Source: Candidatus Berkelbacteria bacterium
GTDB taxonomy: Bacteria > Patescibacteriota > UBA1384 > XYA2-FULL-43-10 > CAINNR01
Direction of reading: 5' to 3'
NCBI GenBank assembly: GCA_037142675.1
Contig: JBAXAF010000002.1
Location: 13,300-77,299 of the forward strand
Length of the DNA: 64,000 nucleotides
Shown: positions 20,765-39,442 of the stretch, one piece after another
Layout of the letters: each line of letters opens with the position of its first letter
Position numbering within the stretch: position 1 is the first letter of the stretch
Position numbers and translations under genes: made by a program
The notes under the pieces: model-generated
What the model saw: only the letters and a program-made list of their open reading frames with translations
The model's database searches: none
Told to the model about the DNA's origin: nothing

Positions 20765-20826
20765 ATACTAACAAAAAACTATCGAAATATCCATAAGTAA
20801 TTAAAAATATAATCAAAAGGAGGAAT

Positions 20827-21549: not shown

Positions 21550-21570
21550 AACTGTAACCACTCACTGTGT

Positions 21571-21654
21571 CGTCATTGCGAGGAGGTACGACGAAGCAAT
21601 CTGATCAAAATAGATTGCCGCGCCTCTCGCTTCACTCGATGACTCGCAATGACA
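21571..21654. repeat. MITE-like palindromic element, TGTCATTGCGAG...CTCGCAATGACA family (copy 1)
   Basis: terminal inverted repeats GTCATTGCGAGG / CTCGCAATGAC with internal GAAGCAATC...GATTGCCGCGCCT core; extended inverted repeats GTAACCACTCACTG/CAGCGAGTGGTTAC. Confidence 0.7.
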
Positions 21655-21922
21655 GCGAGTGGTTACTTAAAACTCTTCTTCTTTCAACTTTTCAAATCGC
21701 ATTTTGGAAAAATATTTCTGGCAATCTTTGTTATTACACCTCGCGAAACAACTTTTTTTGTCAGAAATCAAAATCGACGAGATAACTCCCGTTCGTGCGA
21801 CTACTTCGCCACATTTATCACAAACCTTATATTTCATAGATACACCTAGATTATCACAAAAATCCGAGCATTGGATACTCGGATTTTCTGCAGAAAAACA
21901 GCAGTAATATTTTTTAAGAATA

Positions 21923-23122
21923 TTATTCGTACTTTAGTGCGTCAAGTGCATTGATCTTGACCGCTCGATAAGCAGGGTATAGTCCGGTAGCTAAACCGAC
22001 TAGAATTGAGAATAATCCGACAATCAATTCAAGAGTCCAAGGTGTGACAAAAAGATTGATAGTATCAGCGCCAGCCCTTGAAGCAAAGACTGACAGCAGA
22101 GCATTTATGCCGGTTGCCATTAACAGTCCAAGAATTATGCCGAAGAAACCGCCAAAAGCACCGATCAAGAATGATTCAGTCACAAAGAGTTTGTAGATAT
22201 CAGCGTTTTGCATTCCAAGAGCTTTAAATAGACCGATCTCTCTAATTCTTTCAAGAAGATTAATTGTCAAAGTGTTGAATGTTCCAAGGGCAGCGACCAA
22301 AAGCGCTATCATGCCAAAAATCGCTAAGACTATCCTGAACAGAACGAATACTTGGCTAATCTGATCAACCGTATCTCCGACATATTCAGTCGATAATCCT
22401 AAATTTTCTAGTTGCTTGCGAAGTTCCGGAATGCTCTCTTTGGTGTCAGCTTTTAGTTTTAGGGAGATAAATTTATCGGCCCCATTTTTGGCAAGTAGCG
22501 AAATCGGCACATAAATGATTGGGCTTTGTTCATCTTTTTCGACTCCAACAATTTTCAGCGGAACTTTTTCGACAGTTTTAACCGAATCAGCATTGTCTGT
22601 GCGAATCTCTGCCGGAATAAGTAAATCTAAATCCATCGTTTGACCAATAACTTGATCCTCGTTCTCGCCTAGCAATTTCAAGGCAGCTCGGTTAATCATC
22701 GCTTGTCCATCTGCAAGTGGCAGAGAGCCTTTATCAGCACTAATGCTCGCCATTGGCCAGTAATCCTTACCTGCAGCGACAACGACGGTCTCAGCCGAGG
22801 TTCCGGTGCCATCACGACCAAGCCTACCGGCAATACTGTCAACTGGAACGACAGTTTGGACATGAGGAAGTGCTTCTGTCTTGTCAATCACGCTCTGATC
22901 AATTTTCAAAGTTTTTAAATTTGCCGATGGGATATCTAGAATAGTAAAAGCCTCAAAATTAGTCACCTGGCTTGTCACCAAACGCTCCAAGCCGTATCCC
23001 AGCGATACCAAGAAGATAATCGATCCAATACCAATCACAATTCCCAAAGTGGTAATTATTGTTCTGGATTTCTTTACCCATAGATTTTTTAGAGATAGCC
23101 GAACAATTACTTTTAATTTCAT
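21923..23122 (-). CDS. ABC transporter permease, FtsX/MacB/LolCE family
   Basis: 399 aa; N-terminal TM, large periplasmic domain, C-terminal 3 TM FtsX-like domain; ATGA-coupled to upstream ATPase. Confidence 0.75.
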   Translation of the reverse strand: MKLKVIVRLSLKNLWVKKSRTIITTLGIVIGIGSIIFLVSLGYGLERLVTSQVTNFEAFTILDIPSANLKTLKIDQSVIDKTEALPHVQTVVPVDSIAGRLGRDGTGTSAETVVVAAGKDYWPMASISADKGSLPLADGQAMINRAALKLLGENEDQVIGQTMDLDLLIPAEIRTDNADSVKTVEKVPLKIVGVEKDEQSPIIYVPISLLAKNGADKFISLKLKADTKESIPELRKQLENLGLSTEYVGDTVDQISQVFVLFRIVLAIFGMIALLVAALGTFNTLTINLLERIREIGLFKALGMQNADIYKLFVTESFLIGAFGGFFGIILGLLMATGINALLSVFASRAGADTINLFVTPWTLELIVGLFSILVGLATGLYPAYRAVKINALDALKYE

Positions 23123-23874
23123 ATCATTTTCTCCAAGTTCTTAAGCTCGCCCTCGAGCTGCGCTCGGAGTTCTCCCTTTTTCTCGGAGACGATTTTACCG
23201 TCTATCATGGCGATTGTTTTGCTCGCCAGAGGAAGATAAGCTAGGTTATGGGTAACCATTATCACGGTTCGTTTATAGATTTTATTGAGTTTTTGTAGCA
23301 GATCCATGACATAATCAGCGGAGTGCGTATCAAGATTGCCGGTCGGCTCATCGGCGACAATAATTGATGGATTATTAACCAGCGCTCGCGCCAAACCGAC
23401 CCTCTGTTGTTCACCACCGGAGAGCTGCATCGGCCATTTTTTGGCATACTGGCCCATTTCAACCTCGCCCAGTATTGCTTGTGCCTTAAACACCGAGTCA
23501 TGGTATCCTGATCCGGTTATCATTAGCGGAACCGCGACATTTTCAACTACATTGAGAGCTTTTGCCCAATACGATTGCTGGTAGACGATACCGAATTTGC
23601 TGGAGCGAACCTTGGCGCGTTGAGCCTGATTCAAAGAGCCCATATTCTTTTCATAGAGATAAACATTGCCCTTAGTTGGTGTTTCCAAGCCGACAATGTG
23701 ATTCAGAAGAGTTGATTTTCCACAACCTGATGGGCCATAAATAACAACAAAATCGCCTTCATTAATACTAACAGTAATGCCTTTTAAGACTTCTGTTTTT
23801 GTTGACTTGTCTGCCGAGACAAACTCTTTGAACAAACCATCAATTTTAATAATTTCTTTTTCCATTATTTCCAA
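23119..23874 (-). CDS. ABC transporter ATP-binding protein (MacB/LolD-like)
   Basis: Walker A GPSGCGKST, signature LSGGEQQRVGLARAL, Walker B IIVADEPTGNLD. Confidence 0.9.
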   Translation of the reverse strand: MEIMEKEIIKIDGLFKEFVSADKSTKTEVLKGITVSINEGDFVVIYGPSGCGKSTLLNHIVGLETPTKGNVYLYEKNMGSLNQAQRAKVRSSKFGIVYQQSYWAKALNVVENVAVPLMITGSGYHDSVFKAQAILGEVEMGQYAKKWPMQLSGGEQQRVGLARALVNNPSIIVADEPTGNLDTHSADYVMDLLQKLNKIYKRTVIMVTHNLAYLPLASKTIAMIDGKIVSEKKGELRAQLEGELKNLEKMI

Positions 23875-23878
23875 TTAT

Positions 23879-26800
23879 TCAATTATTTGGGTAAAACATC
23901 TTGCTTAAAAAGCCGAGTGATTTTTGCAGTGAATTAACAATAATGTCGACGACTGATTGTTGGATTTTACCGGTAATGGTTGTGGTGTCGTTCGAAGTTC
24001 CCATGTTCCCAGCGTTATCATGCGACACGGCCCGAAGGTGATAAATCTTTGATGGCTCAAGTCCGGAAGCAATGACTACATGGCTGGTCGAAAGCGCCAT
24101 ATCCTCTTTGGTTTTGAAATCATAATCAGATCCGCTGATTCCGGTTGAATATTCAATCTGACTTGTTGATGGTTCATCTGTTTGCCACGAAACAACTAAT
24201 TGCGCTTGTTGAGTTTGACCGAAGCCATTTGATTTTATTTCGACTGCAAGTGATGACAATTTTGGTGGTCGGGTGTCAAGCGGTGTTGTATAGGTGTTGG
24301 CATCTGACTCAACTTGATTTCCAAAGTTATCGACGCCTTTTGCTTTTAGAACATAAACCGATTTGTCCTGAAGGTCGGAAACCGTAATTTCGTGCGCTGT
24401 CTTATAATCAGCTTGCGAAGCGGTTTGTGCAGATGAGCCGATTGTATAAGAGACTATAGAAGTTGTCGCCACATTGGTATCCCAATTAAATTTCAGTGTC
24501 GTTGTCGGAGCGTCTTTAACTGTCTCAAAGCGGAAATTTGAGATCTTCGGCATGGTCAAAGTATTAAATGTATAATCATCCGAAATAAGCTGATTATTAT
24601 CCGTATCAGTCCCGATTATTTGAAAATGATATGTGGCCGAGTCGTCGAGGCTAGTCAAATTGATTGAGTGGCTAGTAGTTTGCGAACCGGATTTGTCGGA
24701 AATATTTCCACCATAGTTTGGAGTTTTTCCATAATTGATTGTCGAGGTGGCAATGGTTGTGGATGTCCAAGAAATTGTTGCGGCGTTCAAAGTGATATTT
24801 GAAACTTTTACATCGGAAATTTTCGGTCTTAGTCCGGTCTTAAACGAGTAGACATCGCTTCGTCCCTGGTTACCGTCTGAATCCTCCCACATTGCTTGGT
24901 AATAGTAGATCGTCTCAGGGTCAAGGCCAATGACTTCAACTGAGTGCTTTTTGCTCTTCTCCGGTTGACCAAATCCTTTGGCATTTTTCAAATCGTCTTT
25001 GCTTTTAGCAAAATAGCCGAAACTTGAACCTTCGCGGTCGGTTTCCCAAGAGATAGTAGCTGAAAATGCCTTTGGCGAAGCAGTTGGGGCCTCTGTTATG
25101 GCCGGTGGGTTAGTATAACGACCGGTCGGTGTCAAATTAACTATCGACGAGGCAACTGAATGTTGACCGGCATTGTCTTTCGATTTGACATAGTAATAGT
25201 ATTTTTGGCTTGTCAGGTCGGTGTCGGCATAAGTACTACCAGCGGTTGTGCCGACCGAGGAATAATTTGAGCCGTCAGTCGAACGATAAATTTCATAGCC
25301 GTTAAATCCGGTGCCGGTGTTTGCTGGCGCAATCCACTTTAGAGTTGCAGCAAACAGCGAAGCATCTCGGTTTGAAATATCAAAGATTTGCAAACTCGCC
25401 GGTGCGCCTGGCGCGGTGGTATTGGCAGTGAAGGTTGTTTTGGCGCAACCATCGGTGTCGGAGTTACCGGAGATTGCATTACAGGAATCAAATGAATAAT
25501 TTCCCGCTTCATCTTTGGCAACGATATAGAAGGTATTTTCTCCTTGTTGGGTGGCATATGGTCCGGCTGGAAGTATTCGGTCGGTCACAAACGAAGTATT
25601 CGACGGTGTCGGTAGCGCATTTATTGAGTAATAGTAACCCGATATTGTTCCGCTTCCGGTTGACGGCTCATCCCAGGAAAAAGCGAAACTGTTTGAATCA
25701 GACGATGACGGTGTGACAGTCAAATTCTTCGGTGCAGTCGGCGCGGTGTTATTGTAATAAAAGTTTGTCTGAACCGGAGTCGGATCGACATTGCCGGCGT
25801 TGTCAACGGCACGAAGATAAAAGATATTTGTGCCGGTTCGGTAAGCGACATCACCAAGTTCCAGTGATCCGCCGGTCATTGTTGCCGACCAATCGGAATA
25901 AATGCCGTCAGTTGCGCCTGTTTTGTATTGATAACCATAAATGCCACTTCCACCGGTGTCGCTCGCCATATCGGCACCCGAAGTCGGCCAGATGAAAGTA
26001 AAGGAATTGGTGCGCGTAAAGCCCGATGGTGAAACCGAAACATATTTTGGTGAATCCGGAGTTGCCGTTTCATATTTATAGGTGAAGATGGTTGAGCCGC
26101 TCCCGATATTACCGGCATTGTCTTTTGAGCTAATGCGTAAATAGTAAGTTGAGCCGGAAGCCAAAGAACCGGCGGTATAATTCAATCCTGTTTGGTAACT
26201 GCCGGCCGTATGCGGATCAGCAGAATTCGAAGTTCCGAAATAAACATAGTAACCGGCTGTGCCGGAAACCGTATTGGCGTGGCTGCCATCGGTGGCATCC
26301 GTGGAGGCGTTAAAAGTAAAATACGGAGCCGCGTAGTTGTGCCAATCGCCGGAGACAATATCGCTTCCACTAGAAGATTGACTTTTGGCAGTTGCCAAAG
26401 TCGGATCCGGTGGCGCCATATTATCCTGATCGTATTTGTAAGTGTATACGGTTGCAGCCGTAGAAATATTACCAGCGACATCTTGGGTTTTTATTCGCAA
26501 ATAATAGCTTTGATTATAGTTAGTCGATAAATCGCTTGCCGTGTAGTTTGTGGTAGTTTGCCAGACACTCGGATCGGCTGAAGCATTTGTACCGAAATAA
26601 ACATAATAACCGGCAACTCCCGACGGAGTTATCCCGTTTGCATTGTCACTTGGCGCAGTCCACGAAAAGTAAGGTGTTGGATAGTTATACCAAGTCGCCC
26701 CGTCAAGTGTCACGCCACTCGAAGTGCTTTTAGCGGTAATTGAGCTTGGATTATTTGGTGGTAAAAGATCTGGATTGTAATCAGGTGATGTAATGCCGGA

Positions 26801-27447
26801 AAAGTTAATCCAACCCCAGTCTTCGCTCCAGGCATAACCGGAGAAATTTCCTCCTGTAGCTATCACCACATTGGCGCCGGTCGGACTTGCATTAAAATCA
26901 ATATAGCCGCCGTTTAGCATTTTCGCCTTTCCTGATAAATGTCCGGAAGTGTCAGCGACTACCGGTCCCGAAGGATTGCTATCTGAGCCAAAGCTAATCC
27001 AGCCGAGATCGCCACCCCAGGCATAACCGCCCATCTGGCGAGAATAATTATCTATCGTCACATTGCTATGGTAAGTTCCTGCGTCAAAGTAAATTTTTTC
27101 GCCAGTGTTAACAATAGTTCCGGTAGTTCCCACAACCGCTACCGCACTGCCGGTAGCCTCAGAGTGCTTACTCGAGAGAAACATACCGCCAGCTACGATA
27201 ATAAAGCCGCAAAATATTGTGAATGCCGTCCAGCCGATTTGTTTGCGGTAAGGTTTTGCTTTTTTGGTAATCTTTGCGAGCCAACTATTAAATTCTGCCG
27301 GACTGGTAGAATCTTGATTTATACTTTGTCTTTTATGATTAACTTTTAGAGAAAATGACAAATGTTTTTTAAAATTACTAAAAACTTCACAAATCTTTTT
27401 TGTGATCTGTCGATAATTTCGATTAATTTTGGATATTAGCTTTTTCA

Positions 27448-27448
<1 letters not shown>
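23879..27448 (-). CDS. very large cell-surface protein with multiple FN3-like repeats (N-terminal membrane anchor)
   Basis: 1189 aa; repeated ~90-aa modules with YYxxxxxxDxAGNxS-type patterns; start codon overlaps RT stop (ATGA). Confidence 0.6.
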
Positions 27449-28642
<1,194 letters not shown>

Positions 28643-28666
28643 TTTTTTCTTGTCATTTGTTTTTCT

Positions 28667-28742
28667 TGTCATTGCGAGGCTTTGCGAAGCAATCTTTTTT
28701 GTGTTTTTTATGGGATTGCCACGCCTGCTGGCTCGCAATGAC
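28667..28742. repeat. MITE-like palindromic element, TGTCATTGCGAG family (copy 2), in the TR-RT spacer
   Basis: TGTCATTGCGAGGCTTTGCGAAGCAATC...GATTGCCACGCCTGCTGGCTCGCAATGACA. Confidence 0.7.
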
Positions 28743-28776
28743 ATACTCATTTTAGGTAGAAAAGGCATCCCCGTTG

Positions 28777-28906
28777 CCTGACACAGCGAACATTGTTGTT
28801 ATTGCCCTCTCCATTGTTGTTCGTGTTGCCATTATTCAACTGGACGTTCCACGCGTTAGATCCAACGCTGTTCTCCGTCGCCGACCAGTAGTTGTTGGAT
28901 GGCTGA
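28777..28906 (-). other. DGR template repeat (TR)
   Basis: 130 bp ~90% identical to VR (29499-29628); all 13 mismatches are at TR adenines on the coding (minus) strand; AAC/AAT codons in TR. Confidence 0.9.
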
Positions 28907-29083
28907 TGAAATGCTGCCGACTTTTGTTGCTCGGTTTTCTATCTCTGGCAAGCAGAGTAAGAAAACTTGTAATTATTCCTTTTGGAGCGGCAGCCGTAAC
29001 GGGGCGGTCGCACTCCCGATCATAACCCCGCACAGAGGCGAAGAATACGAGCGGCTCTTGCTATGCCTTTTCTACCTAAAATT

Positions 29084-29431
29084 TTAATGTGCTTTCGACC
29101 AATTCATCCATTTTTCGAACTGTTTCGATATTTCAATCAGTTGCTCAAAAAAGAATTTATAACTTTGTATTTTCATTGTCTTAAGCTCGTGCAGCATTCT
29201 GGCTTTAAACTTAATTCTCTCAATGATTACCAACCCCTCCTTTAATTTGTTTGTTTTGTCTTCAAGGTTATTGGCTTCAACAATTATGTCCATCAACTTT
29301 GTCAGCAATCCCTCTATTTCCTCGGCTAAGCCGTATTTGTAATCTTTCGGGAATCCTCGTGCCAACCGGAAGAAGTATAAATTTATGTCGTAAACGCTTT
29401 TGTAAATTGGAAGGTGGTCATATCTTGCCAT
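29084..29431 (-). CDS. avd: DGR accessory variability determinant (Avd)
   Basis: 115-aa helical protein starting MARYDHLPIYKSVYDINLYFFRLARGFPKDYKYGLAEEIE, positioned between target gene and TR as in canonical DGRs. Confidence 0.75.
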   Translation of the reverse strand: MARYDHLPIYKSVYDINLYFFRLARGFPKDYKYGLAEEIEGLLTKLMDIIVEANNLEDKTNKLKEGLVIIERIKFKARMLHELKTMKIQSYKFFFEQLIEISKQFEKWMNWSKAH

Positions 29432-29495
29432 AAAAATTTTCGCTCGACCGCCTTCGGCGGAAACAATAATAACTAAATAATCAAATTACCCTGCG

Positions 29496-30536
29496 TTACC
29501 TGACACAGCGAACATTGTAGTTACCGCCCTCTCCAAAGTTGCTCGTGTAGCCATTATTCAACTGGACGCCCCACGCGTAAGATCCAACGCTGCTCTCCGT
29601 CGCCGACCAGTAGTTGTAGGATGGCTGAGTCAGATTCCAGTAAGCACCATCAATGAAAGCCTGCATCAGCTCGTTTTGGGTTGGTAAACGCCAGACACCG
29701 GCACCGGCAGGGTTGGCACTGCTGTTGCAAAGCTGTGCAGCGGTTTTATTACCGACAGCCACATTGGCTGCGCCGGTAGCGTTCCATGTCCAAGAAGATC
29801 CGCCGGAAGCGACAAATTGAATTACTCCGGCATTATTCTTAAGGCATTGGCTCCAAGTTAAACCGGTTAGCGGGTCTTTATTGGTATTTCCGGCCCGATT
29901 ATCGTCACCGGTTACCGGAGACGAGTTGGTTGTAAAAGTTAAAGAACAGTTGTTGCCGGTCGTGCCACCGTCCGCCGGATCAAGCACATCGGTAGAGCAA
30001 GGGCCACCGGAAACTGGCGCATAATTACCGGAAATTTGCGTGCCATCATTTGACCAAGCGACTTTACCACTTTTAACATCGCCGGCTCCGGCAACCGTGC
30101 CGGCACCAGTCAAGGGATATGTTGCCGAAGGATATTGACCGGTTAAGCCAACGCCAAAGAGGGTTCCACTTTTGACTGTTCCAACTGAAAGATTCCCTAA
30201 ATTATATGTGCCGCTGGTTGCGCTGCGCGAACCGTTTGCGGTGAATGTTTTTGTAGATGAAACATCACCAGCCCCAGCCGTCGTGCTCGGTGTCCACTTG
30301 GCAGCAGTTTTGATACGGTTCCAATAAGTTCCCCAGTCTGGTGTGTCCGAGTCGGAACCGAAGGTTAAACCCGTAAGATCTGTATAAAGCGTTTTCATGC
30401 GTGAAGTTACTCCGGACTCCGGTGTGCTACCGGATTGTTCGGCAAAAACTTTGTAAGTTCCAAAAACTCCGGCGCAAAGTAGCACTGCCACAGCCGCGAT
30501 GATGAACTTATTCCTTTTTTTCATATTTGCCTCCAA
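29496..30536 (-). CDS. DGR target protein: secreted/surface protein with C-terminal DUF1566/C-type-lectin-fold variable region
   Basis: N-terminal signal/anchor; C-terminus GLTWSQC...WRLPTQNELMQAF...YWSATESSVGSYAWGVQLNNGYTSNFGEGGNYNVRCVR; VR at 29499-29628 matches TR. Confidence 0.85.
   Translation of the reverse strand: MEANMKKRNKFIIAAVAVLLCAGVFGTYKVFAEQSGSTPESGVTSRMKTLYTDLTGLTFGSDSDTPDWGTYWNRIKTAAKWTPSTTAGAGDVSSTKTFTANGSRSATSGTYNLGNLSVGTVKSGTLFGVGLTGQYPSATYPLTGAGTVAGAGDVKSGKVAWSNDGTQISGNYAPVSGGPCSTDVLDPADGGTTGNNCSLTFTTNSSPVTGDDNRAGNTNKDPLTGLTWSQCLKNNAGVIQFVASGGSSWTWNATGAANVAVGNKTAAQLCNSSANPAGAGVWRLPTQNELMQAFIDGAYWNLTQPSYNYWSATESSVGSYAWGVQLNNGYTSNFGEGGNYNVRCVR
29499..29628 (-). other. DGR variable repeat (VR) at the 3' end of the target gene
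   Basis: aligned to TR; VR has T,G,G,T,T,G,T... where TR has A on the coding strand (Y/S/G/F codons versus AAC/AAT). Confidence 0.9.
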
Positions 30537-30550
30537 TTATAAATTCTTTT

Positions 30551-30616
30551 TGTCATTGCGAAGTACGAAGCAATCTCATTCCACACAGATTGCCGCGCCT
30601 GCTGGCCCGCAATGAC
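30551..30616. repeat. MITE-like palindromic element, TGTCATTGCGAG family (copy 3), immediately upstream of target gene start
   Basis: TGTCATTGCGAAGTACGAAGCAATC...GATTGCCGCGCCTGCTGGCCCGCAATGACA. Confidence 0.7.
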
Positions 30617-30714
30617 AAACCCTAATCCTCGCAATGTAAAACTATAAATATTAAAAAAGACACTCAAAAGAGTGCTTGAATTACCAGTTCTAAATGCAAA
30701 AACGGAGAGCTCCT

Positions 30715-30745
<31 letters not shown>

Positions 30746-30990
30746 GAGTTCGGAACTTCGAACTCGAGCTAAAGCGCGCTCGTTACAGTTACGTTTAATG
30801 TTCCCTCCTCTATATAAAACACAGTCTTTGAAATGATTACTTATAATTATACATCAACTAAACCAATAATACATCATTTATTATTTTGTTGTAAATGCCT
30901 AGAAATCAAATTAATAGCAACTGGGATTTTCTTAGGAATTATCGTATCAATTTGGCACTTTAATCGTATCATTTTGATACGAGAAAGAGA

Positions 30991-31866
30991 TTAATTGCTT
31001 TGCCCGATTTTCCAGACTCCCTTTTCTCGAAATGCCGCCAGAGTTTGACGTTTTGCCATATTTAGAAGGACATTCAGGGGCTGTTTTGTATTTTTTGCGT
31101 ACTCAGAAAGTGAAATAATTTTGAGACCTTCTAAATAAGCAATTCTTTTATGTAAAGATTCCAATAGTGCAAGATAGAGAACTTTTTCCATGTCTGCAGT
31201 TTTTTTGTTTTCTTTATATTCCTGAAAGGTTTTGTAATATAGATGTTTCTCTTTATCACGAATAATCACAGGTGGAAAGCCAATCTGTAGCAGGAGATAA
31301 TTAATTAAAACCCTGCCAATTCGGCCATTACCATCGCAAAATGGATGAATATGCTCGAATTCCAAATGAAATTTAGCAATCTTTTCTAGAAAATAAGACA
31401 TGTGATCGCCGGAATAATCAAGAAGTGCTGATTCAACCATAGTTGCCACATGTTCCGGTGCTGGCGCAATGTGCGTTCCAACTCGGACATATTCTCCGGC
31501 AGATCTAAATATACCGGCAATTTTATCATCAATTCCAGCAATCAACATCTTGTGTAAAAACAAGATTAATTCTTCATCCAAATCACGGCTAAGAGTTTTG
31601 TCCTTGATATATTCAAAAACTCTAGCTAAATTTTTAGCTTCATAAACTTCTCGAACAGATACTTTGCGCGCAACTTCAAGTTCTAATAAAATCTTTTCAG
31701 TTTCCTCAATGGTGAGGGTTGAATTTTCGATAGCATTTGAGTTGTAGACTGATTCCGGAATCTCGGCTTCAGCTAGCATATCCAAAAGAGATCCTTTGCC
31801 GATTTTCAAAGTATCATACTGCTTTTTTAAGTCATTAATTTTTTGTTTGATATCTTTATTGATCAT
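30991..31866 (-). CDS. Fic/DOC family protein (AMPylase-type)
   Basis: Fic motif HPFCDGNGRIGR; 291 aa. Confidence 0.8.
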   Translation of the reverse strand: MINKDIKQKINDLKKQYDTLKIGKGSLLDMLAEAEIPESVYNSNAIENSTLTIEETEKILLELEVARKVSVREVYEAKNLARVFEYIKDKTLSRDLDEELILFLHKMLIAGIDDKIAGIFRSAGEYVRVGTHIAPAPEHVATMVESALLDYSGDHMSYFLEKIAKFHLEFEHIHPFCDGNGRIGRVLINYLLLQIGFPPVIIRDKEKHLYYKTFQEYKENKKTADMEKVLYLALLESLHKRIAYLEGLKIISLSEYAKNTKQPLNVLLNMAKRQTLAAFREKGVWKIGQSN

Positions 31867-31899
31867 GGTTAAATCTTATCATATTAACGATATATTGTC

Positions 31900-31950
31900 A
31901 ATACACCGTGAATATAGTCTACTTTGAGTATATATTCACGGTGTTTCTGA
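31900..31950. promoter_or_regulatory. 14-bp-arm inverted repeat between the NTase gene end and fic start (operator or terminator)
   Basis: ACACCGTGAATATA-gtctactttgag-TATATTCACGGTGT. Confidence 0.4.
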
Positions 31951-32003
31951 TTATTCAATGACATTTAGACTAGCTATAGAGGGCTTATTTTCGTTATATG
32001 GTG

Positions 32004-32648
32004 CTATTTATTAACTTTTGCCAAATAATTTGTCACGGTTTCTGAGAGATACTTTTTAACTAATTCGAAACTAATATCATCATCGTGCTTAAAGAGAATT
32101 GGTTCTTCCAGAATATCATCAAAATACACTAGGCTTTTAAGGATTAGGTTAACGTCAATTGTAGGAAACTTTTCTTTTGTTAATTTGAAAAGCTCTTCAA
32201 GGCTTATTTTGTGAAGAATAAAATACAAATCAACATAATCTTTAAGAACAGATCGGCTTGTAATTGCTGAGAGCTTCATAGCACCAATGTCTTCGAGGGA
32301 GGCCATTTTAAAATTATCTTCATCCAACAGTGGATTAATCGGTTTGTATGGAAAAGCAAAGAAGCTAATTTTAATTGTGTCGTCAATGATAAATGTTAGA
32401 GTATCTTTTTCTTCCTGAATTTTTGCAATTTGATGATTCTGAAAAATTTGCTCGACTTTTTTGGTCAAGTCTTCAGTAGAAAAAGATTGTTCAGAAAAGA
32501 AATCAAAATCAATACTATCTCGATGCCCCAGTTGCAATGCTAGAGCGGTGCCACCGGCAAGATAAAAATCATCTTTGAAAACTTTAAAAAGAGGTAGAAT
32601 ATTTATACGCTTTTGGTCTAGAATATCCCAATAAAATTGTTTATCCAT
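32004..32648 (-). CDS. nucleotidyltransferase of the AbiEii/DUF1814-like family (putative toxin/defence component)
   Basis: N-terminal LAGGTALALQLGHRDSIDFDFF resembles the GGTAL...RxSxDxD NTase motif of AbiEii-type proteins. Confidence 0.5.
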   Translation of the reverse strand: MDKQFYWDILDQKRINILPLFKVFKDDFYLAGGTALALQLGHRDSIDFDFFSEQSFSTEDLTKKVEQIFQNHQIAKIQEEKDTLTFIIDDTIKISFFAFPYKPINPLLDEDNFKMASLEDIGAMKLSAITSRSVLKDYVDLYFILHKISLEELFKLTKEKFPTIDVNLILKSLVYFDDILEEPILFKHDDDISFELVKKYLSETVTNYLAKVNK

Positions 32649-32928
32649 GAAGTACTCTTTCCAGCTTAGAAATGGGTTTGATATTTAAATAAAGCGACCA
32701 AAGAGCTAGAGACTTTTTGTTCCATTGACCAGTTGGAATCTGCTCGGCTATTTTTTGTATCTCATCCAAACTATATGTTTCGAACAACCAATCTGTAGCA
32801 TCTTCGGTGCCGTAATTTAAAACCTGGGCAATAATTAATTTTTTGTGTAATTCTAAATCGATCTTATTGATGTCATAAGACCAGAGAACATTTGCAACAG
32901 ATTTTGGAATTTTTTCGTTGGTTGTCAT
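32641..32928 (-). CDS. small partner protein of the nucleotidyltransferase (putative antitoxin/regulator)
   Basis: 95-aa ORF overlapping the NTase start by 8 nt. Confidence 0.35.
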   Translation of the reverse strand: MTTNEKIPKSVANVLWSYDINKIDLELHKKLIIAQVLNYGTEDATDWLFETYSLDEIQKIAEQIPTGQWNKKSLALWSLYLNIKPISKLERVLHG

Positions 32929-33004
32929 ACCTAAAAATTACTTGTCTAACAGATATATTATAGCATATTTGGGGCTATTTATATAGGGGAAAATGATATT
33001 AATC

Positions 33005-33817
33005 CTATTCCCAAATCTCTCCGGTAATACCATTTACTTTGATCTTGTCGATAGTCGTAAATTGTATACGAAGATCGCTCGGGTTGTCCTCGTCTTCTAA
33101 AAGTCCTTTGGTCATTCGTTTGGCATAGATCATGGTGGCTAGAGTCGGGCAAACAATCATGATAATCGGGAAGGTCTTGGAAATTTCATCCCATTCGTAG
33201 CCATTGTAAAGCTCTATAAAATTTTTGACTTGGCGCCTGATCGAATAACGAGGCAGAGTCGGCGCAATTATCGCAAAAAGAAAATATTCCGATATTGTCC
33301 GTTTGCTGGCTTTCTTTTTCTTGAGTCTTTTAACCACCGGATCCACTTTATATTCAGTCAAAAAGTTAAAACGATACTCGGAATTAGCCAGGTCCGTTGC
33401 GGTAGCAATCAAATAGGAGAGTTCATTTTCTTCACTAGACTCTCGGCTTCTGTTTGCCGCAATTTTCAAACCCAAAGCAATCTCCCCGACGAGCTGGCAT
33501 TTTTCGATAAAATCGGTTGAGCGGTCTTTAAGCCTATAAAACTTTCTTAGAACCTCGATCGAGCAATCATCTTGAGTTTTTAAGAATCTGATTCCATTTA
33601 ATCCCAGGTAATAGATCGCCGGTTTGGTATTTTCTCCAAACTTATTTGAATAGATTCGATTAAGGTATTCTTTTTGTGTTAGGTCTTTTAACCAGTCGTT
33701 GATTCTTTTGTGATATTTATGATTGAGGAATGCTTGAATTTGTTTTCGATCTAAGAATTTGTATTTGTATAGTAGTTTGAGTATTTCTTGTTGTTTTGTA
33801 GTTATTTTGTTGGTCAT
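33005..33817 (-). CDS. putative replication-relaxation / wHTH mobile-element protein
   Basis: N-terminal QQEILKLLYKYKFLDRKQIQAFL wHTH-like segment; mobile-element context. Confidence 0.3.
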   Translation of the reverse strand: MTNKITTKQQEILKLLYKYKFLDRKQIQAFLNHKYHKRINDWLKDLTQKEYLNRIYSNKFGENTKPAIYYLGLNGIRFLKTQDDCSIEVLRKFYRLKDRSTDFIEKCQLVGEIALGLKIAANRSRESSEENELSYLIATATDLANSEYRFNFLTEYKVDPVVKRLKKKKASKRTISEYFLFAIIAPTLPRYSIRRQVKNFIELYNGYEWDEISKTFPIIMIVCPTLATMIYAKRMTKGLLEDEDNPSDLRIQFTTIDKIKVNGITGEIWE

Positions 33818-34094
33818 TGTTTTGAATTAGTTGTTTATTTAATTTGCAATTTACCATTACTACCTACACCGACCAAACCTATATTTGTAAAGGTAAGTGA
33901 TACAAGTCGCATATCTTTTAAGGCTAAATTAAACATATTTCAGTATCAGTTCACTGATACAATTAAATACCTGATTATTCGGCTTGTCAACAGTCTTATT
34001 TAAACTTTTACCCTCTTGACATTGTGAATATAACAATAGTATACTATGAATATAATCACAATAAGGAGGGTATACGGGGACTTCTCATCTTCAA

Positions 34095-34415
34095 TTGATA
34101 GGCCAGAAAAACACCTTGTTTTCTACGGTGGAAATCAATCCCTCTGCCCATATTAAAGCTGAGAGGCCAAGGCCAGAAGCCTTAATTGCTACACATAGCA
34201 AAACCTTTGAGAGTGCCTTGAGCAGGATCTTCCCTGGCAAACAAGAGGAAACCAGGATCCAAAAGGCGCGCCTAATTATGGGAGATGATGTCAAAGATTT
34301 ATCGGATGAAGATTTAGAGGTTTTCCTTACCGAGTTTCAATATCTGATCGACTGCTGGTTAGACGAATACGAAAAACAAGTTTTCAATAACAAAACATTA
34401 AGAGAATTAATTTAA
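34095..34415 (+). CDS. hypothetical protein upstream of recombinase
   Basis: 106-aa ORF, 15-nt gap to recombinase start. Confidence 0.3.
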   Translation: MIGQKNTLFSTVEINPSAHIKAERPRPEALIATHSKTFESALSRIFPGKQEETRIQKARLIMGDDVKDLSDEDLEVFLTEFQYLIDCWLDEYEKQVFNNKTLRELI

Positions 34416-34429
34416 TAAAGGAGGGATGA

Positions 34430-36145
34430 ATGGACTTTCCATCACCAATCAAAGGGGAGCAATCAGAAAAAGCGGTCGTTTATATTCGAGTATCGACCGA
34501 AGAGCAAGTCGAAAACTATTCGCTAGGCACTCAAGAAGAGATTTGCAGAAAAGAAGCCGATAAACGAAAGCTCGAGGTTGTGAAGGTTTTTCGCGAAGAG
34601 GGACGTTCCGCAAAGACGATTACCGGACGACCTACACTAATTGAAATGCTCGAGTATTGCCGAAAACACAAAAGAGAAATCAGTTCGGTTATTGTTTACC
34701 GACTGGATCGAGTTTCCCGTCAAACATCTGATTATTTGGTGATTAGAAGAAAACTGGTGGAATGCGAAATAGAACTAATTTCAGCCACAGAGCCAACCGG
34801 CAACAGCCCGACAGAAAAGTTTGTTGAAACTATGTTGGCCGGCTTTGCCCAGATGGATAACGATATTCGAAGCGAACGAGCCAAAAATGGGCTTAGAGCC
34901 AGATTCCAGGCTGGCTTAACCAGTTATGTAACGATGGGCTATGATAATAAAAGTGGCTATACAACAAAAAATCCCGAAACATTTGATAAGCTTCAAGCTT
35001 CTTGGCATTTATTTTCCACAGGCACGAAAACACTGCGAAATATTGCCAATATTCTAACTGAACAAGGAATTGCCCAAAGACATAAAGGCGGGCGTATGCT
35101 CCCACAGCAGGTTAACAGAATGTTTCGCAATAAATTCTATGCCGGTTATGTCATCTCTAAAAAATATGGGCAAGAAGTCCAAGGCCAGCATCCACCAATG
35201 GTTACCGAGGAATTATTCTACAAAGTCCAAGCGATTCTAGATGGTAGAAACCACAACATCTCAAGGCCGCTAGCAAAGCGCCATCGAGACAACCCGAATT
35301 TTCCCCTGCGCCGTATCGTCAAATGCGAAATTTGCGGTACTTCTTTTACTGGAGGGAAAAGCAAAGGCAAGCGCGAATACTATGGCTATTACTTTTGCCG
35401 AAACAGATGCAAAGAATCGAATGTCGCTTCGGAAAAGATAACCCATGATACCACCGACTATTTGGGTAAAATATCCCTAACAGAAAAAACCGCCAAATTG
35501 TTTAACGCTTTTCTGCGAAGAACTTATTTTAGCAGGGCTAAAACCCTACAAAAAAGACGAGAGCAGGCCGATGACGAGCTAAAAAAGTCATATGAAACAC
35601 GCCAGGCATTAATCGATAAGAATCTGACCGGCATATACTCCGACGAGATCTTTAAGGAACAAAACAATATGTTAGAGGCAAAAATAAAGAGTATTCAATT
35701 CACTAAAAACGATGAATTACTTGATAAATATGCTCTTGGGCCGATTACTCAATTTGTTGAAACCAAGCTAACCGATCTGCCGAAAACCTTTGAGACATCT
35801 ATAAAAAAAGATCCTGAACCGGATCTCGGACAGATCAGAATGCTCCTGTGTTCGATATTCCCCTCTGGAATGCCATATGGCCGAAATGGCTATTCGAACA
35901 CAGAAATCAGCCCATTTTTCAGAGCGATTTTGGACTTGCAGCCCAAGAATTCTAATCTTGTCTCGTTTGGCGGAGAGAGTGTGATTCGAACACACGAGGA
36001 TAGGTATCCATGGGTTTACCACCCATTCCCTTTGACCACTCGGGCATCTCTCCGCTTAAGACTTACAGCGAGCCGTGCCGGAGCCCAACCCGACAATCAT
36101 CTCCCCGTGACGTCGTGTCACAGCCTTGATGACATCAAACATTGA
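34430..36145 (+). CDS. large serine recombinase (integrase); 3' end of ORF runs antisense through tRNA-Tyr (C-terminal ~60 aa probably spurious extension)
   Basis: resolvase catalytic domain AVVYIRVSTEEQ, recombinase domain, zinc ribbon CEICG...CRNRC, coiled-coil; no stop codon until 36145. Confidence 0.8.
   Translation: MDFPSPIKGEQSEKAVVYIRVSTEEQVENYSLGTQEEICRKEADKRKLEVVKVFREEGRSAKTITGRPTLIEMLEYCRKHKREISSVIVYRLDRVSRQTSDYLVIRRKLVECEIELISATEPTGNSPTEKFVETMLAGFAQMDNDIRSERAKNGLRARFQAGLTSYVTMGYDNKSGYTTKNPETFDKLQASWHLFSTGTKTLRNIANILTEQGIAQRHKGGRMLPQQVNRMFRNKFYAGYVISKKYGQEVQGQHPPMVTEELFYKVQAILDGRNHNISRPLAKRHRDNPNFPLRRIVKCEICGTSFTGGKSKGKREYYGYYFCRNRCKESNVASEKITHDTTDYLGKISLTEKTAKLFNAFLRRTYFSRAKTLQKRREQADDELKKSYETRQALIDKNLTGIYSDEIFKEQNNMLEAKIKSIQFTKNDELLDKYALGPITQFVETKLTDLPKTFETSIKKDPEPDLGQIRMLLCSIFPSGMPYGRNGYSNTEISPFFRAILDLQPKNSNLVSFGGESVIRTHEDRYPWVYHPFPLTTRASLRLRLTASRAGAQPDNHLPVTSCHSLDDIKH
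35968..36053 (-). tRNA. tRNA-Tyr (anticodon GTA), type II with long variable arm
   Basis: reverse complement GGAGAGATGCCCGAGTGGTCAAAGGGA ATGGG TGGTAAA CCCAT GGATACCTATCC TCGTGTGTTCGAATCACAC TCTCTCCGCCA; D-arm pattern as in bacterial tRNA-Tyr; position 33 is G (atypical). Confidence 0.7.
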
Positions 36146-36348
36146 TCAGCTCGCAAACATCTGGAGCGGGCGACCGGATTAGTACCGGCAACCAAATGCA
36201 ACCCTGTCCTTACTGCTTTGTTGTTGCTAGCAGCAGTCGACTCAGCGGCATCCGCTCGACGCCCGCTCTCCGAAAAATGTGCGGCGCCGGTTCCCAGACC
36301 GAGCCTGGGTTTCCGATCCGGGTCGGCGCCGCGAAACTTGTCAAGATT

Positions 36349-36473
36349 TGGTCGGGGCGACCAGATTTGAACTGGTGACCTTACGGGCTGCCAGGAATGA
36401 GTTTTAGCTCCTTTGCCAAGGGAAACTCAAACCGGCAGTGGACCGCACGAGCTACCAACTGCTCCACGCCCCG
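36349..36473 (-). ncRNA. tRNA-like gene with ~50-nt hairpin insertion in the anticodon loop (intron-containing tRNA or tRNA pseudogene)
   Basis: reverse complement has canonical acceptor (CGGGGCG/CGCCCCG), D arm GAGC-AGTTGGTA-GCTC, anticodon stem TGCGG/CCGTA, variable loop AGGTC, T arm ACCAG-TTCAAAT-CTGGT, discriminator A + CCA; 56 nt between anticodon-stem strands containing CTGCCGG...TGAGTTT...AAACTCA...CCTGGCAG helix. Confidence 0.5.
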
Positions 36474-36537
36474 ACCGCGAAATGCGACAAAGAATAATAT
36501 AGCAGATACAGTTTTTTCTGTCAATAGTTTTGTGTTT

Positions 36538-36626
36538 CGTCATTGCGAGGAGCGATTAAGCAACGTGGCAATCTTTTAAATAGAGCTTGCCACGCCTCAG
36601 CCGATGGCTGATGGCTCGCAATGACA
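36538..36626. repeat. MITE-like palindromic element, TGTCATTGCGAG family (copy 4)
   Basis: TCGTCATTGCGAGGAGCGATTAAGCAACGTGGCAATC...GCTTGCCACGCCTCAGCCGATGGCTGATGGCTCGCAATGACA. Confidence 0.7.
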
Positions 36627-36702
36627 ATCTTAAAGCGATTTGATTTCTGCGACATTTTTTGCTAAGTTAGGTATAGAAATTTGGGGTTTCTTTTTTTATT
36701 AC

Positions 36703-36784: not shown

Positions 36785-39442
36785 ATGGCAATCGATGCAA
36801 AAAAGATGGTGTACTTCTTCGGCGGGAAAAAGGCCGAAGGAAACGGCAAAATGAAAGATCTCTTGGGTGGCAAAGGTGCAAACCTGGCCGAAATGGTTAA
36901 CTCTGGTGTCCCAGTTCCTCCAGGCTTTACTATTACCACAAAAGTTTGCAACCACTTTTCAGACAATAAGGGCAAGATGCCTGCTAGGTTCGACAAAGAA
37001 TATACTGAGGCTATCGCAAAGATGGAAAAAGCCGTTGATAAAAAATTCGGCGACCTAGAGAATCCACTTTTAGTTTCCGTTCGTTCCGGCGCCAAATTCT
37101 CGATGCCAGGAATGATGGATACCATTCTAAACTTAGGCCTTAATGACAAAACTGTTGCAGCTCTGGCTGCAAAATCTGGCAACCGCCGATTTGCCCTAGA
37201 CGCTTACAGAAGATTTATTCAAATGTTCTCTGGAGTTGTGCTAGAAATCGACAAAGATCTATTTGAAGAAATTTTGGATTACGTTAAAGTTGAAGCCAAA
37301 GTTAAATTGGACACAGAGCTAAAAGAAGATGATCTAGAAATCGTGATCAAAAAATATAAAGATTTAGTTAAAAAGCAAATAGGAAAAGAATTTCCAACCG
37401 ATCCTATGACTCAGTTGGCTATGGCCAGAGACGCGGTTTTTAAAAGCTGGAACAATCCACGAGCTTTCACTTACAGACGAATGAATAAGATTGCCGATGA
37501 TTTAGGCACTGCCGTTAATGTCCAGGCAATGGTTTTTGGCAATATGGGCAGTGACTCAGCAACTGGTGTTGGTTTTACTAGAAACCCTTCAACTGGAGTT
37601 AATGAATTTTACGGCGAGTACCTAACCAACGCCCAAGGAGAAGACGTAGTGGCCGGAATTCGCACACCAAAACCAATTATAGAATTGAAGAAAGAAATGC
37701 CTGCGGCTTTCAAAGAGCTCAAAGATATTACTGACAACCTAGAAAAACACTACCGTGATATTCAAGACTTTGAATTTACTATTGAGCAAGGCGTACTTTA
37801 TATGTTGCAAACTCGCGTCGGCAAACGAACAGCCCACGCTGCAATCAAAATTGCTGTTGATATGGTTAAAGAGGGCATGATTACCAAAGAAGAAGCAATT
37901 ATGAGAGTTGAGCCAGAAGGCTTGAACCAACTGCTCCACCCGGTTTTTGATGCCAAAGTGAGTTATGATGCTGTTGCCACTGGACTCCCAGCATCCCCTG
38001 GCGCTGCCGTTGGCAAAGTAGTATTTACTTCTGAAGACGCAGTTAAAAAAGCGGACGAAAAAGTTATTTTGGTTCGAACTGAAACTTGTCCGGATGATAT
38101 TTCCGGAATGGAAGTTGCACAAGGAATTCTAACTGCCAGAGGTGGAATGACCTCACACGCCGCCGTAGTCGCTCGTGGCATGGGTAAATGCTGCGTTGCC
38201 GGCTGTGAAGATATTAAGGTAGATGAAAAAGCTGGCAAATTAATCATCGCTGGAAAAACTATTAAAGAAGGCGACTATATTTCTATTAACGGTTCAACCG
38301 GTGAAGTTATTCTTGGCCAGGTTCCAACAATCGAGCCAACACTTTCTGGCGACTTTGGAACACTCATGAGCTGGGTTAACAAAACTCGCCGCCTGGGAGT
38401 TCGTTCCAACGCCGATATTCCACGAGATGCAAAAACCGCTGCCGGTTTCGGTGCTGAAGGAATTGGTCTTTGCCGAACTGAGCACATGTTCTTTGATGCT
38501 GCCAGATTGCCTCTAATGCAAAAAATGATTCTAGTTGATACCGAAGAAGACAGGCGCAAGGCGTTAGAAAAACTTTTGCCTTTCCAAAAAGAAGACTTCA
38601 AAGGATTATTTGAAGAAATGAAAGGCTACTCTGTCACCGTTCGTCTGCTTGACCCACCACTTCATGAATTTTTGCCAAAGACCAAAGAGGAAGCCAAAGA
38701 GCTTTCAAAGAAAATTGGCATTGACGAAAAAATTATTTGGAGCAAAACGCAGGACTTGCATGAATTCAACCCAATGCTTGGTCATCGCGGTTGCCGTTTG
38801 GGAATTACCTATCCGGAAATCACCGAAATGCAAACTAAGGCGATCATTTCCGCCGCTTGCGAACTTTTGAAAAAGAAAAATGTCAAAGTAGTGCCAGAAA
38901 TTATGGTGCCACTAGTTGGGAATGTTTCTGAGTTCAAAGATCAAAAAGATATTATCGACGCTACCGCTGCCGAGACAATGAAAGAGTATGGCGTTAAAGT
39001 CAAATACATGGTTGGTACCATGATCGAAGTTCCACGAGCCGCCGTTACCGCCGATGAAATAGCCGAGGTAGCCGACTTCTTCTCCTTTGGAACTAATGAC
39101 CTGACACAGATGACCTTGGGTTTCTCCCGCGATGATGCCGGCAAGTTCATTAAAGTTTACATGGACAAAAAGATCTTTGCCTCCGATCCATTCCAAACAC
39201 TAGACCAAGAAGGCGTTGGCCAGTTGGTGAAAATGGGCATTGAAAAAGGCCGAAGCGTCAAAGAAAAACTAAAGATTGGTATATGCGGCGAACATGGTGG
39301 AGACCCGGATTCAGTTAAGTTCTGCCACCGCGCCGGCATGGATTATGTTTCCTGCTCACCATACCGCGTACCAATCGCTTGTCTTGCCGCCGCCCAAGCA
39401 GTGGTTGAAGAGAGTGATGGGACCAGCTACACAAACAAATAG
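36785..39442 (+). CDS. ppdK: pyruvate, phosphate dikinase
   Basis: 885 aa; PEP-utilising enzyme domains, phosphohistidine region GGMTSHAAVVARG, TIM-barrel CRTEHMFF. Confidence 0.95.
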   Translation: MAIDAKKMVYFFGGKKAEGNGKMKDLLGGKGANLAEMVNSGVPVPPGFTITTKVCNHFSDNKGKMPARFDKEYTEAIAKMEKAVDKKFGDLENPLLVSVRSGAKFSMPGMMDTILNLGLNDKTVAALAAKSGNRRFALDAYRRFIQMFSGVVLEIDKDLFEEILDYVKVEAKVKLDTELKEDDLEIVIKKYKDLVKKQIGKEFPTDPMTQLAMARDAVFKSWNNPRAFTYRRMNKIADDLGTAVNVQAMVFGNMGSDSATGVGFTRNPSTGVNEFYGEYLTNAQGEDVVAGIRTPKPIIELKKEMPAAFKELKDITDNLEKHYRDIQDFEFTIEQGVLYMLQTRVGKRTAHAAIKIAVDMVKEGMITKEEAIMRVEPEGLNQLLHPVFDAKVSYDAVATGLPASPGAAVGKVVFTSEDAVKKADEKVILVRTETCPDDISGMEVAQGILTARGGMTSHAAVVARGMGKCCVAGCEDIKVDEKAGKLIIAGKTIKEGDYISINGSTGEVILGQVPTIEPTLSGDFGTLMSWVNKTRRLGVRSNADIPRDAKTAAGFGAEGIGLCRTEHMFFDAARLPLMQKMILVDTEEDRRKALEKLLPFQKEDFKGLFEEMKGYSVTVRLLDPPLHEFLPKTKEEAKELSKKIGIDEKIIWSKTQDLHEFNPMLGHRGCRLGITYPEITEMQTKAIISAACELLKKKNVKVVPEIMVPLVGNVSEFKDQKDIIDATAAETMKEYGVKVKYMVGTMIEVPRAAVTADEIAEVADFFSFGTNDLTQMTLGFSRDDAGKFIKVYMDKKIFASDPFQTLDQEGVGQLVKMGIEKGRSVKEKLKIGICGEHGGDPDSVKFCHRAGMDYVSCSPYRVPIACLAAAQAVVEESDGTSYTNK

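Follow-up and report, generated by a model that had tools for sequence, protein, structure and literature searches.

A 64,000-nucleotide stretch of a Candidatus Berkelbacteria genome (contig JBAXAF010000002.1, positions 13,300 to 77,299; ‘the window’, to which all coordinates given without a locus name belong) carries on its minus strand a 125-nt gene that has the complete body of a tRNA-Pro, but in which a 56-nt insert occupies the place of the anticodon loop. We read this gene as a transcribed, non-decoding mimic of a tRNA—processed in the manner of a tRNA and bearing a fast-changing helical arm—an interpretation to which we would assign a probability of roughly 0.45. The gene adjoins that for pyruvate phosphate dikinase (PPDK; 36785-39442, plus strand), and its parts are laid out as follows:

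36349..36473, minus strand: tRNA-Pro-shaped gene of 125 nt, with a 56-nt insert replacing the anticodon loop and an encoded CCA; delineated by ARAGORN with introns allowed, RNAfold and homologues
36443..36473, minus strand: 5' body, with the 5' strand of the acceptor stem, U8-G9, the D arm (A14, G18G19), G26 and the 5' strand of the anticodon stem (UGCGG)
36387..36442, minus strand: 56-nt insert between the two strands of the anticodon stem, as seen in the fold and with the same architecture in a relative (L177, below)
36349..36386, minus strand: 3' body, with CCGUA, variable loop AGGUC, a T arm with UUCAAAU, the 3' strand of the acceptor stem, A73 and CCA

Read from its 5' end, the order is CGGGGCG-UG-GAGC-AGUUGGUA-GCUC-G-UGCGG-[56 nt]-CCGUA-AGGUC-ACCAG-UUCAAAU-CUGGU-CGCCCCG-A-CCA; that is, a 7-bp acceptor stem with C1 and G72 paired, U8 and G9, the D arm, G26, the anticodon stem, the variable loop, the T arm and the second acceptor strand, then A73 and CCA. 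Every pair of the four stems is intact and the bases that form the elbow are all present (U8, A14, G18G19, G15 with C48, G53-C61, U54U55C56, A58), giving the 7/4/5/5-bp stems and conserved tertiary bases of a canonical tRNA, which are kept in all four homologues described below. What is missing is a 7-nt anticodon loop in which U33 precedes an anticodon and position 37 is a purine; 56 nt here, and 83-85 nt in the homologues, take its place. RNAfold predicts a cloverleaf with a long coaxial extension of the anticodon arm, at a minimum free energy of -52.2 kcal/mol (z = -3.4; 0 of 200 shuffles fold as well). A first-pass annotation, made from the sequence of the window, had already described the canonical arms, discriminator and CCA, a separation of 56 nt between the anticodon-stem strands, and the folding of those 56 nt into a long helix; layout and fold agree with the first and last of these, and the separation proves to be exact (36442..36387).

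With default settings ARAGORN misses the gene, and Rfam leaves it unreported both at gathering thresholds and at E<=10. When introns are allowed, ARAGORN calls it a tRNA-Ala(GGC) with a 47-nt intron, by way of a forced register: the anticodon stem is shifted by one base, creating a U-C mismatch, so as to yield the loop CUGGCAG with U33 and anticodon GGC (the same register also implies a 6-nt variable loop, as counted from the sequence). This solution is reproduced in none of the three homologues. The earlier statement that no U33 can be recovered for any splice choice thus holds for the canonical 5-bp stem but not for the shifted one, where a U33 appears at the cost of the mismatch; likewise, the intron-model check suggested alongside it does call the gene, but solely through this forced register.

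The body is, as judged from its sequence, of the tRNA-Pro type and not that of an initiator. C1-G72 and A73 are acceptor identity elements of bacterial tRNA-Pro, and the gene carries them (G72, A73) within a Pro-type body. A scan of metagenomes with its 5' half (GGGGNGTGGNGCAGNNGGTAGCNCG) retrieved, among the loci fetched, tRNA-Pro genes only: at least 115 ordinary ones were parsed, 76-77 nt long, with anticodons UGG, CGG or GGG in UUNGGGA-type loops, and with the same acceptor, D arm and variable loop as the window gene; the nearest normal ones in this set differ from it at 4-9 of 66 body positions. An initiator identity, suggested by the D arm, AGGUC and UUCAAAU, was considered and rejected, C1-G72 being paired and the 5' half retrieving only tRNA-Pro. 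When a genome collection was scanned separately for bodies of the fMet type interrupted by a gap of 40-70 nt, all 39 matches proved to be tandem duplications, N-gap assembly joins or attachment-site remnants. The Pro anticodon itself (NGG, with G35 and G36, and G37) is absent at both junctions of the insert in all four genes. Four of the metagenome loci (L092, L104, L124 and L165) hold 5' fragments of tRNA-Pro, three broken in or just after the anticodon loop (TTTGGGA) and that of L165 earlier; these look like attachment-site remnants of elements integrating into tRNA-Pro.

Relatives of the gene were located through the contigs of PPDK homologues, and sort as follows (identities are those of amino acids, relative to the PPDK of the window):

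L046 (same sequence in L047 and L048), PPDK 95%: tRNA-Pro body with an 85-nt insert
L052, PPDK 87%: tRNA-Pro body with an 83-nt insert
L177, PPDK 90%: tRNA-Pro body with an 83-nt insert
L174 and L175, PPDK 85%: normal 76-nt tRNA-Pro(UGG) in the same position
L049, L050, L051 and L173, PPDK 95%: gene absent, the same promoter driving other tRNAs
L176 and L178, PPDK 88% and 89%: unrelated hairpins in the same position

Three distinct further genes with an insert (L046, L052, L177) therefore lie just upstream of PPDK, as does the window copy, and all of them keep the tRNA arms, which answers the call of the first-pass annotation for homologous loci. We read the four as one orthologous group because of this shared place, a trailer common to all of them and a leader common to the window, L046 and L177 (that of L052 differs). 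An identical 125-nt gene is called on an ENA assembly contig (L001) and the L046 homologue recurs in a metagenome-assembled genome and in Logan assemblies, so that an artefact of assembly can be dismissed. The contigs of these Berkelbacteria derive from ERZ27300155, ERR15302213, ERR15302198 and JGI 3300029286. Extending the synteny comparison to L176, L178, L179 and L180 added no members, and scans of viral sequences produced no relative of the window RNA, only tandem tRNA-fMet genes and two phage tRNAs with hairpin introns. The same annotation had asked whether the locus might be a degraded duplicate of an intact tRNA elsewhere: no evidence of this emerged within the 64 kb of the genome at hand, and in L174 a normal tRNA-Pro(UGG) occupies the position. 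A duplicated attachment site was likewise considered and rejected, no repeat of the gene being found elsewhere between 15 and 40 kb of the window. The insert-bearing gene is dispensable, and is unlikely to be the lineage’s sole tRNA-Pro, since it is without counterpart in close relatives and L174 and L175 carry a normal tRNA-Pro(UGG).

The position is also occupied in L176 (~1815-2010, minus strand) and L178 (~2236-2360, minus strand), where long hairpin RNAs directly follow the promoter; that of L178 ends in a CGGGAAG/CUUCCCG stem and then ACCA, in the manner of a minihelix. Both were considered as relatives of the inserts and set aside, their similarity to these not being significant.

Comparison of the four distinct genes over the tRNA body (42 paired and 27 unpaired nt) reveals a marked asymmetry. 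All 84 of 84 stem cells are standard pairs, even though 10 of the 21 pairs vary, 5 of these with a change on both sides: 29:41, for instance, is C-G or U-A, and 51:63 is C-G, U-A or A-U. Two genes differ at 7-14 of the 42 paired nucleotides and at 0-2 of the 27 unpaired ones; when the same number of substitutions is placed at random in the stems, all pairs survive in no more than 1 in 10,000 trials. In RNAalifold, too, all four stems (acceptor, D, anticodon, T) are returned, and with covariation. Among the same genomes the DNA of PPDK is 76-87% identical (13-24% divergence), and because the stems have stayed paired and the loops near-invariant over this distance, the pattern argues strongly for long purifying selection on the tRNA fold, and is what a working fold of this kind would leave behind.

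That same pattern bears most directly on the possibility that the gene is a tRNA-Pro pseudogene, a redundant copy disabled by a palindrome that replaced its anticodon loop within a decaying operon. Such a history would account for the missing anticodon, for an insert that varies in both length and sequence, and for a gene that is absent from close relatives or stands as a normal tRNA-Pro(UGG) at the same position in L174 and L175; the array is moreover an integration hot spot, the next gene along (36266..36162) has a disrupted D arm and a mutated T loop, and the third is a Ser-type gene with G33. Decay would, however, break stems and leave uncompensated changes across stems and loops alike, which is not what we see: the 84 cells are paired and compensated, the loops near-invariant against the 13-24% divergence of PPDK, the helices of the insert kept through compensatory changes, and promoter, trailer and terminator all retained. 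We consider a pseudogene improbable.

Turning to the insert, that of the window consists of UCCA, a 51-nt hairpin (36438..36388, unique in the window) and a single C. Two helices, CUGCCGG/CCUGGCAG and then UGAGUUU/AAACUCA, lie on either side of a UU/UU internal loop in this hairpin, which is capped by an apical CCUU-GGCA-AAGG and prolongs the anticodon stem by ~18 predicted pairs, with more in the relatives; all four inserts (56 to 85 nt) fold as one irregular nested helix on the anticodon stem. Those of L046 and L052 are clearly homologous, showing compensatory helix changes and a common 7-nt apical loop (GUAAGAU) when aligned by hand, and that of L177 has significant similarity to L046 in its inner part (p<0.003). 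The window and L177 in turn share an architecture: a 4-nt 5' junction of the NYCA type (UCCA or AUCA), a helix starting CU and ending AG, the UU/UU internal loop, a second helix with GAG/CUC, and one C at the 3' junction. Variation within the insert is greatest in its apical part (loops GGCA, GAAA and GUAAGAU), and the idea of a decoding loop at the tip of the hairpin was rejected on account of these differing loops.

Since the insert occurs only once, and its two arms have changed from genome to genome yet stay complementary, we read it as probably an RNA structure rather than a mobile DNA palindrome; the latter was rejected, the motifs recurring neither in the window nor in the other loci examined. 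A related proposal is that a DNA-level site, either a recombinase attachment site or a miniature mobile element, lies inside the tRNA gene by chance: the insert is a ~50-bp imperfect inverted repeat, the gene for a large serine recombinase lies ~200 bp away, and islands sit at tRNA 3' ends in this array. Against this, the fetched loci of L046, L052 and L177 contain the insert but show no recombinase, analogy with L174 vs L175 puts the island junction at a different tRNA, the insert is single-copy in the window and in every locus examined, and the arms, in changing while remaining complementary, include G-U pairs, which suggests selection at the level of RNA. We regard a DNA site as very improbable.

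A different role for the hairpin is offered by the intervening sequences of rRNA, which are sporadic among relatives and change quickly in length and sequence. By analogy, RNase III might cut the insert out and the ends stay unjoined. The result would be two tRNA halves held together by base pairing, or else the freed hairpin would be the functional product, with the tRNA body serving only as a handle for folding and processing. The insert is indeed long and mostly double-stranded, with tandem U-U mismatches; it is sporadic among close relatives and has changed fast in length and sequence; and Patescibacteria are known for insertions in RNA genes (PMC13011429). Left unexplained is why a mere handle should keep an invariant tRNA tertiary core, A73 and CCA, and we found no hairpin sequence conserved in all four genes; overall we think this alternative unlikely.

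The remaining alternative is that of a real tRNA with a new kind of short hairpin intron, protein-dependent or self-cleaving, whose removal would yield a decoding tRNA. In its favour, the insert lies precisely where the anticodon loop would be and stacks on the anticodon stem; the body is under full tRNA constraints, A73 and CCA included; Patescibacteria are rich in tRNA introns (PMC13011429); and there are precedents in phages, both published (PMC6784885) and in two phage contigs, one of them of 300 kb, that came out of our scans. In these, a tRNA-fMet (L045 10692-10802) has a 34-nt hairpin insert whose removal restores CUCAUAA exactly, and a tRNA-Asn (L043 7897-8014) a 35-nt one whose removal restores CUGUUAA exactly; both match the short, non-group-I ‘enigmatic’ tRNA introns that Devoto et al. 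(2019; PMC6784885) described in huge phages (Lak megaphages). Excision restores a canonical 7-nt loop in L045 and L043, but not in the window, L046, L052 or L177. The junctions of the four genes are UCCA...C, AUCA...C, AAUAU...UAAAA and AUAAUAU...UAAAA, and when every 5'/3' split leaving 7 nt was enumerated by hand, none gave a Pro anticodon and none an anticodon shared by the four homologues. A Leu solution (CAA/UAA) is available for some copies, but was discarded as it needs different rules per copy and leaves C33 or A33 in two; and the forced calls of ARAGORN differ from locus to locus (Ala, Tyr, Leu and Ser in the four).

Nor does the insert resemble an intron of a known mechanism. Group I introns are typically >200 nt, with a P3-P9 core and intact flanking anticodon-loop nucleotides; the insert has 56 nt and no such core, and neither the homologous loci nor the region or the window as a whole matched any Rfam family other than tRNA (E<=1-10), with no ribozyme or intron among the matches. 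A bulge-helix-bulge motif (3-nt bulges about a 4-bp helix) is likewise absent, the predicted window junction consisting of 4 nt and 1 nt, then 5 bp and a 1-nt bulge, and that of L046 and L052 of a 5x5 or 7x5 internal loop. Among the ~28 open reading frames of the window that were scanned (64 kb), there was no splicing endonuclease of the EndA family or RNA ligase, although no search was aimed at a splicing endonuclease. Taken with the dispensability of the gene in close relatives, these results lead us to judge an intron unlikely. The first-pass annotation had left three options side by side: an unusual intron-containing tRNA, a tRNA-derived structured RNA or a pseudogene. It was right that the insert is far too short for a group I intron; its first option goes unsupported, with no splice restoring a canonical or shared loop; its third is disfavoured by compensatory stem changes and invariant loops in four diverged genomes; and it is the second to which the evidence inclines.

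The gene is flanked by the elements of a candidate transcription unit:

36496..36524, minus strand: promoter-like site TTGACA-17-TATATT, with TG before the -10 hexamer and 11/12 matches, ending 22 nt upstream of the 5' end of the tRNA-like gene
36333..36348, minus strand: 3' trailer AAUCUUGACAAGUUUC, its AAUCU(C/U)GACA motif present in all four insert-bearing loci
36270..36332, minus strand: terminator-like 52-nt GC-rich hairpin (-37 kcal/mol) followed by ACAUUUUUCGG, a run of U

Promoter and leader are also found in L046, L177, L049 and L173. The hairpin with its U run looks like an intrinsic terminator that would close the transcription unit; its loop sequence (GGAAACCCAGGCU) is common to the window and L177, and a simple terminator scan does not list it, the loop being longer than that scan permits.

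On the interpretation of a non-decoding mimic, the RNA would be transcribed from its own sigma-70-type promoter, end at the terminator-like hairpin and fold like a tRNA, with RNase P trimming the 5' end and the 3' end being trimmed to the encoded CCA. The product would keep a complete, L-shaped body derived from tRNA-Pro, with a long irregular helix in place of the anticodon loop, and could not act as an adaptor on the ribosome because it has no anticodon and an arm too long for the decoding site. Most likely, then, it would work off the ribosome, where it might display its hairpin for some partner, whether a protein or RNase III, or else occupy a factor that reads the acceptor, elbow and CCA of tRNA-Pro.

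The gene does not stand alone in being unusual, as other members of these tRNA arrays are aberrant too:

36162..36266, minus strand: Thr-type tRNA-derived RNA, with acceptor GCGGGCG/CGCCCGC, U73 and CCA
35968-36053, minus strand: ‘tRNA-Tyr(GUA)’ of ARAGORN, with a Ser-type body (GGAGAGA acceptor, G73, long variable arm) and G33 in UGGUAAA
L049 c5340-5414; L052 c5146-5220; L176 c1657-1731; L177 c285-359 and c447-534; L178 c2156-2235: intact bodies with abnormal anticodon loops

In the Thr-type gene the T loop is mutated to UACUAAU, and one long irregular hairpin replaces both the D and anticodon arms; it looks decayed, and at its position L174 has a normal tRNA-Thr(GGU) and L177 a Thr-type body with an 8-nt loop (AUGGCAAA). 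The Ser-type body at 36053..35968 is found in L049 as a normal tRNA-Ser(GCU) and in L177 in a version with an enlarged loop; were the window gene charged by seryl-tRNA synthetase and able to decode, it would mistranslate Tyr codons. In related arrays the anticodon loop measures 8 nt in a Thr-type body, 11 nt in a Ser-type one, 6 nt in Asn-type ones and 10 nt in a Val-type one; there are also two tRNA-Asn(GUU) genes with C33, and the Asn-type bodies with 6-nt loops carry a UCCGAAU T loop. Either tRNA-like RNAs with disabled anticodons are retained as a set in this lineage, or its arrays tolerate decay; in the former case, the insert-bearing gene may be one member of a wider set of such genes heading tRNA operons in the lineage. 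Elsewhere in the window (59500-59593, plus strand), ARAGORN calls a 94-nt ‘tRNA-Gly(GCC)’ with a mismatched acceptor stem, an odd variable region and no Rfam support; this is probably a false positive.

Several points weigh against our preferred interpretation of a non-decoding tRNA mimic. The aberrant and partly decayed neighbours raise the prior for degeneration, although the Pro-type gene does not itself look degenerate. Gene conversion with functional tRNA-Pro genes, or recombination, could imitate selection on the body. The insert of the window has no significant sequence similarity to the other three, so that its homology with them rests on position and architecture. A non-obvious splicing route may rebuild the anticodon loop, a possibility compatible with the sequence as it stands; and the sample is one of four distinct sequences, of genes read from DNA. 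The rough weights that we attach to the five readings considered here sum to 0.92, the remainder being reserved for readings that we have not conceived. More generally, we would propose, tentatively and at rather less than an even chance, that Berkelbacteria maintain under selection a family of RNAs shaped like tRNA-Pro but without an anticodon, a fast-evolving helical arm taking the place of the loop. Such RNAs would amount to a class of tRNA mimic new to bacteria and acting away from the ribosome; alternatively, this would be the first tRNA insert on a bacterial chromosome to be taken out by something other than a group I or group II route.

As to the wider setting, the host is a bacterium of the Candidate Phyla Radiation (CPR), Candidatus Berkelbacteria: the window PPDK is 100% identical to an NCBI protein so labelled, and the next-best named relatives are Patescibacteria. 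At lower coordinates than the tRNA-like gene lies an island of ~16 kb (~20400-36145), which adjoins a tRNA 3' end in the array that separates DnaK from PPDK; the tRNA-like gene is outside it, between island and PPDK. The island includes genes for an ABC transporter, a large surface protein, a diversity-generating retroelement, Fic, AbiEii and Replic_Relax, together with the recombinase:

34430-36145, plus strand: large serine recombinase, its frame running antisense through the tRNA at 35968-36053

A similar recombinase is encoded in L174 (region 869-2437), and L175 has the same PPDK but no island, the junction falling at tRNA-Ile(GAU); comparison of the two places islands of this kind at tRNA 3' ends within the array. 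The retroelement (27448-30536) has a reverse transcriptase at 27448-28131 (minus strand) with a probable N-terminal part at 28094-28768, and a 135-nt template repeat (28772-28906) that is 90% identical to the variable repeat (29494-29628); the latter forms the 3' end of the target gene (29496-30536, minus strand), which encodes an Lcl_C lectin-like domain. Two long (CT)n tracts, each followed by CGAGTTC (28126-28180 and 30709-30751), flank the region of the target gene. Dispersed intergenic palindromic repeats, GTCATTGCGAG...CTCGCAATGAC, occur at 21566-21654, 28662-28746, 30540-30620 and 36533-36629.

Known non-decoding tRNA mimics are, to our knowledge, few (tmRNA and Y RNAs among them), and our literature searches returned no description of an RNA such as this one. 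A conserved bacterial RNA with every feature of a tRNA except the anticodon would, if borne out, add a new example of the tRNA fold being reused beyond decoding; were the insert instead spliced, an undescribed bacterial splicing route would be indicated. There is also a consequence for annotation: ARAGORN misses the gene by default and gives four different false identities when introns are allowed, whilst the Rfam tRNA model (RF00005; gathering threshold 29 bits) reports one of the four copies, that of L052 at 47.2 bits, leaving those of the window, L046 and L177 unreported. Through such misses and false calls, tRNA censuses of the CPR may be distorted in either direction.

Set against known systems, the window gene shares with the short introns of huge phages (PMC6784885) a hairpin-forming insert, some tens of nucleotides long and far too short for group I, within the anticodon loop of a bacterial-type tRNA, but differs in that excision restores a canonical loop only in the phage genes, and in being chromosomal, within a CPR bacterium. 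With the group I introns reported in tRNA genes of Patescibacteria by Nakagawa et al. (2026; PMC13011429), it has in common the phylum, the anticodon-loop target and the failure of standard tRNA finders to see it; those introns are, however, self-splicing and flanked by intact anticodon-loop nucleotides, whereas the inserts here are of 56-85 nt with no flanking anticodon. The bulge-helix-bulge introns of archaea and eukaryotes also lie in or next to the anticodon loop, with intron pairing that extends the anticodon arm, but the window gene lacks their succession of 3-nt bulge, 4-bp helix and 3-nt bulge, its junction having 4 nt (5' side) and 1 nt (3' side). That the organism is bacterial we judge from its type II, Ser/Tyr-type tRNA body and from the encoded CCA. 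Like the intervening sequences of 23S and 16S rRNA, the insert is an extended hairpin in a loop of a structural RNA, sporadic and variable in length and sequence; here, though, the host molecule is a tRNA, and an essential loop is replaced rather than extended.

We know of no reported member of a tRNA array in which the loop is replaced by a 50-85-nt helix. Membership of an array is itself a point in common with the atypical array tRNAs treated in parts of the literature (e.g. PMC8421152, PMC4758250), and arrays of the window type hold loops of 6, 8, 10 and 11 nt, with G33 or C33. The tRNA-like domain of tmRNA and the Y RNA YrlA, mimics that do not decode, also join an acceptor/T-arm elbow to a long helix at the place of the anticodon arm, a topology like that of tmRNA helix 2. 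The window gene nevertheless has G3-C70 where tmRNA has G3-U70, lacks a tag reading frame and is not recognised as a tmRNA by ARAGORN; from YrlA it differs in keeping the D arm and anticodon stem fully, with no YrlA or Y RNA match in Rfam, and YrlA is circularly permuted relative to it. Bacterial tRNA-Pro (RF00005) agrees with it in the body, with the acceptor CGGGGYG/CRCCCCG, C1-G72, A73, CCA, D arm, AGGUC, T arm and tertiary-contact bases in common, and departs from it in the 7-nt loop with G35 and G36, for which an insert of 56-85 nt is here substituted.

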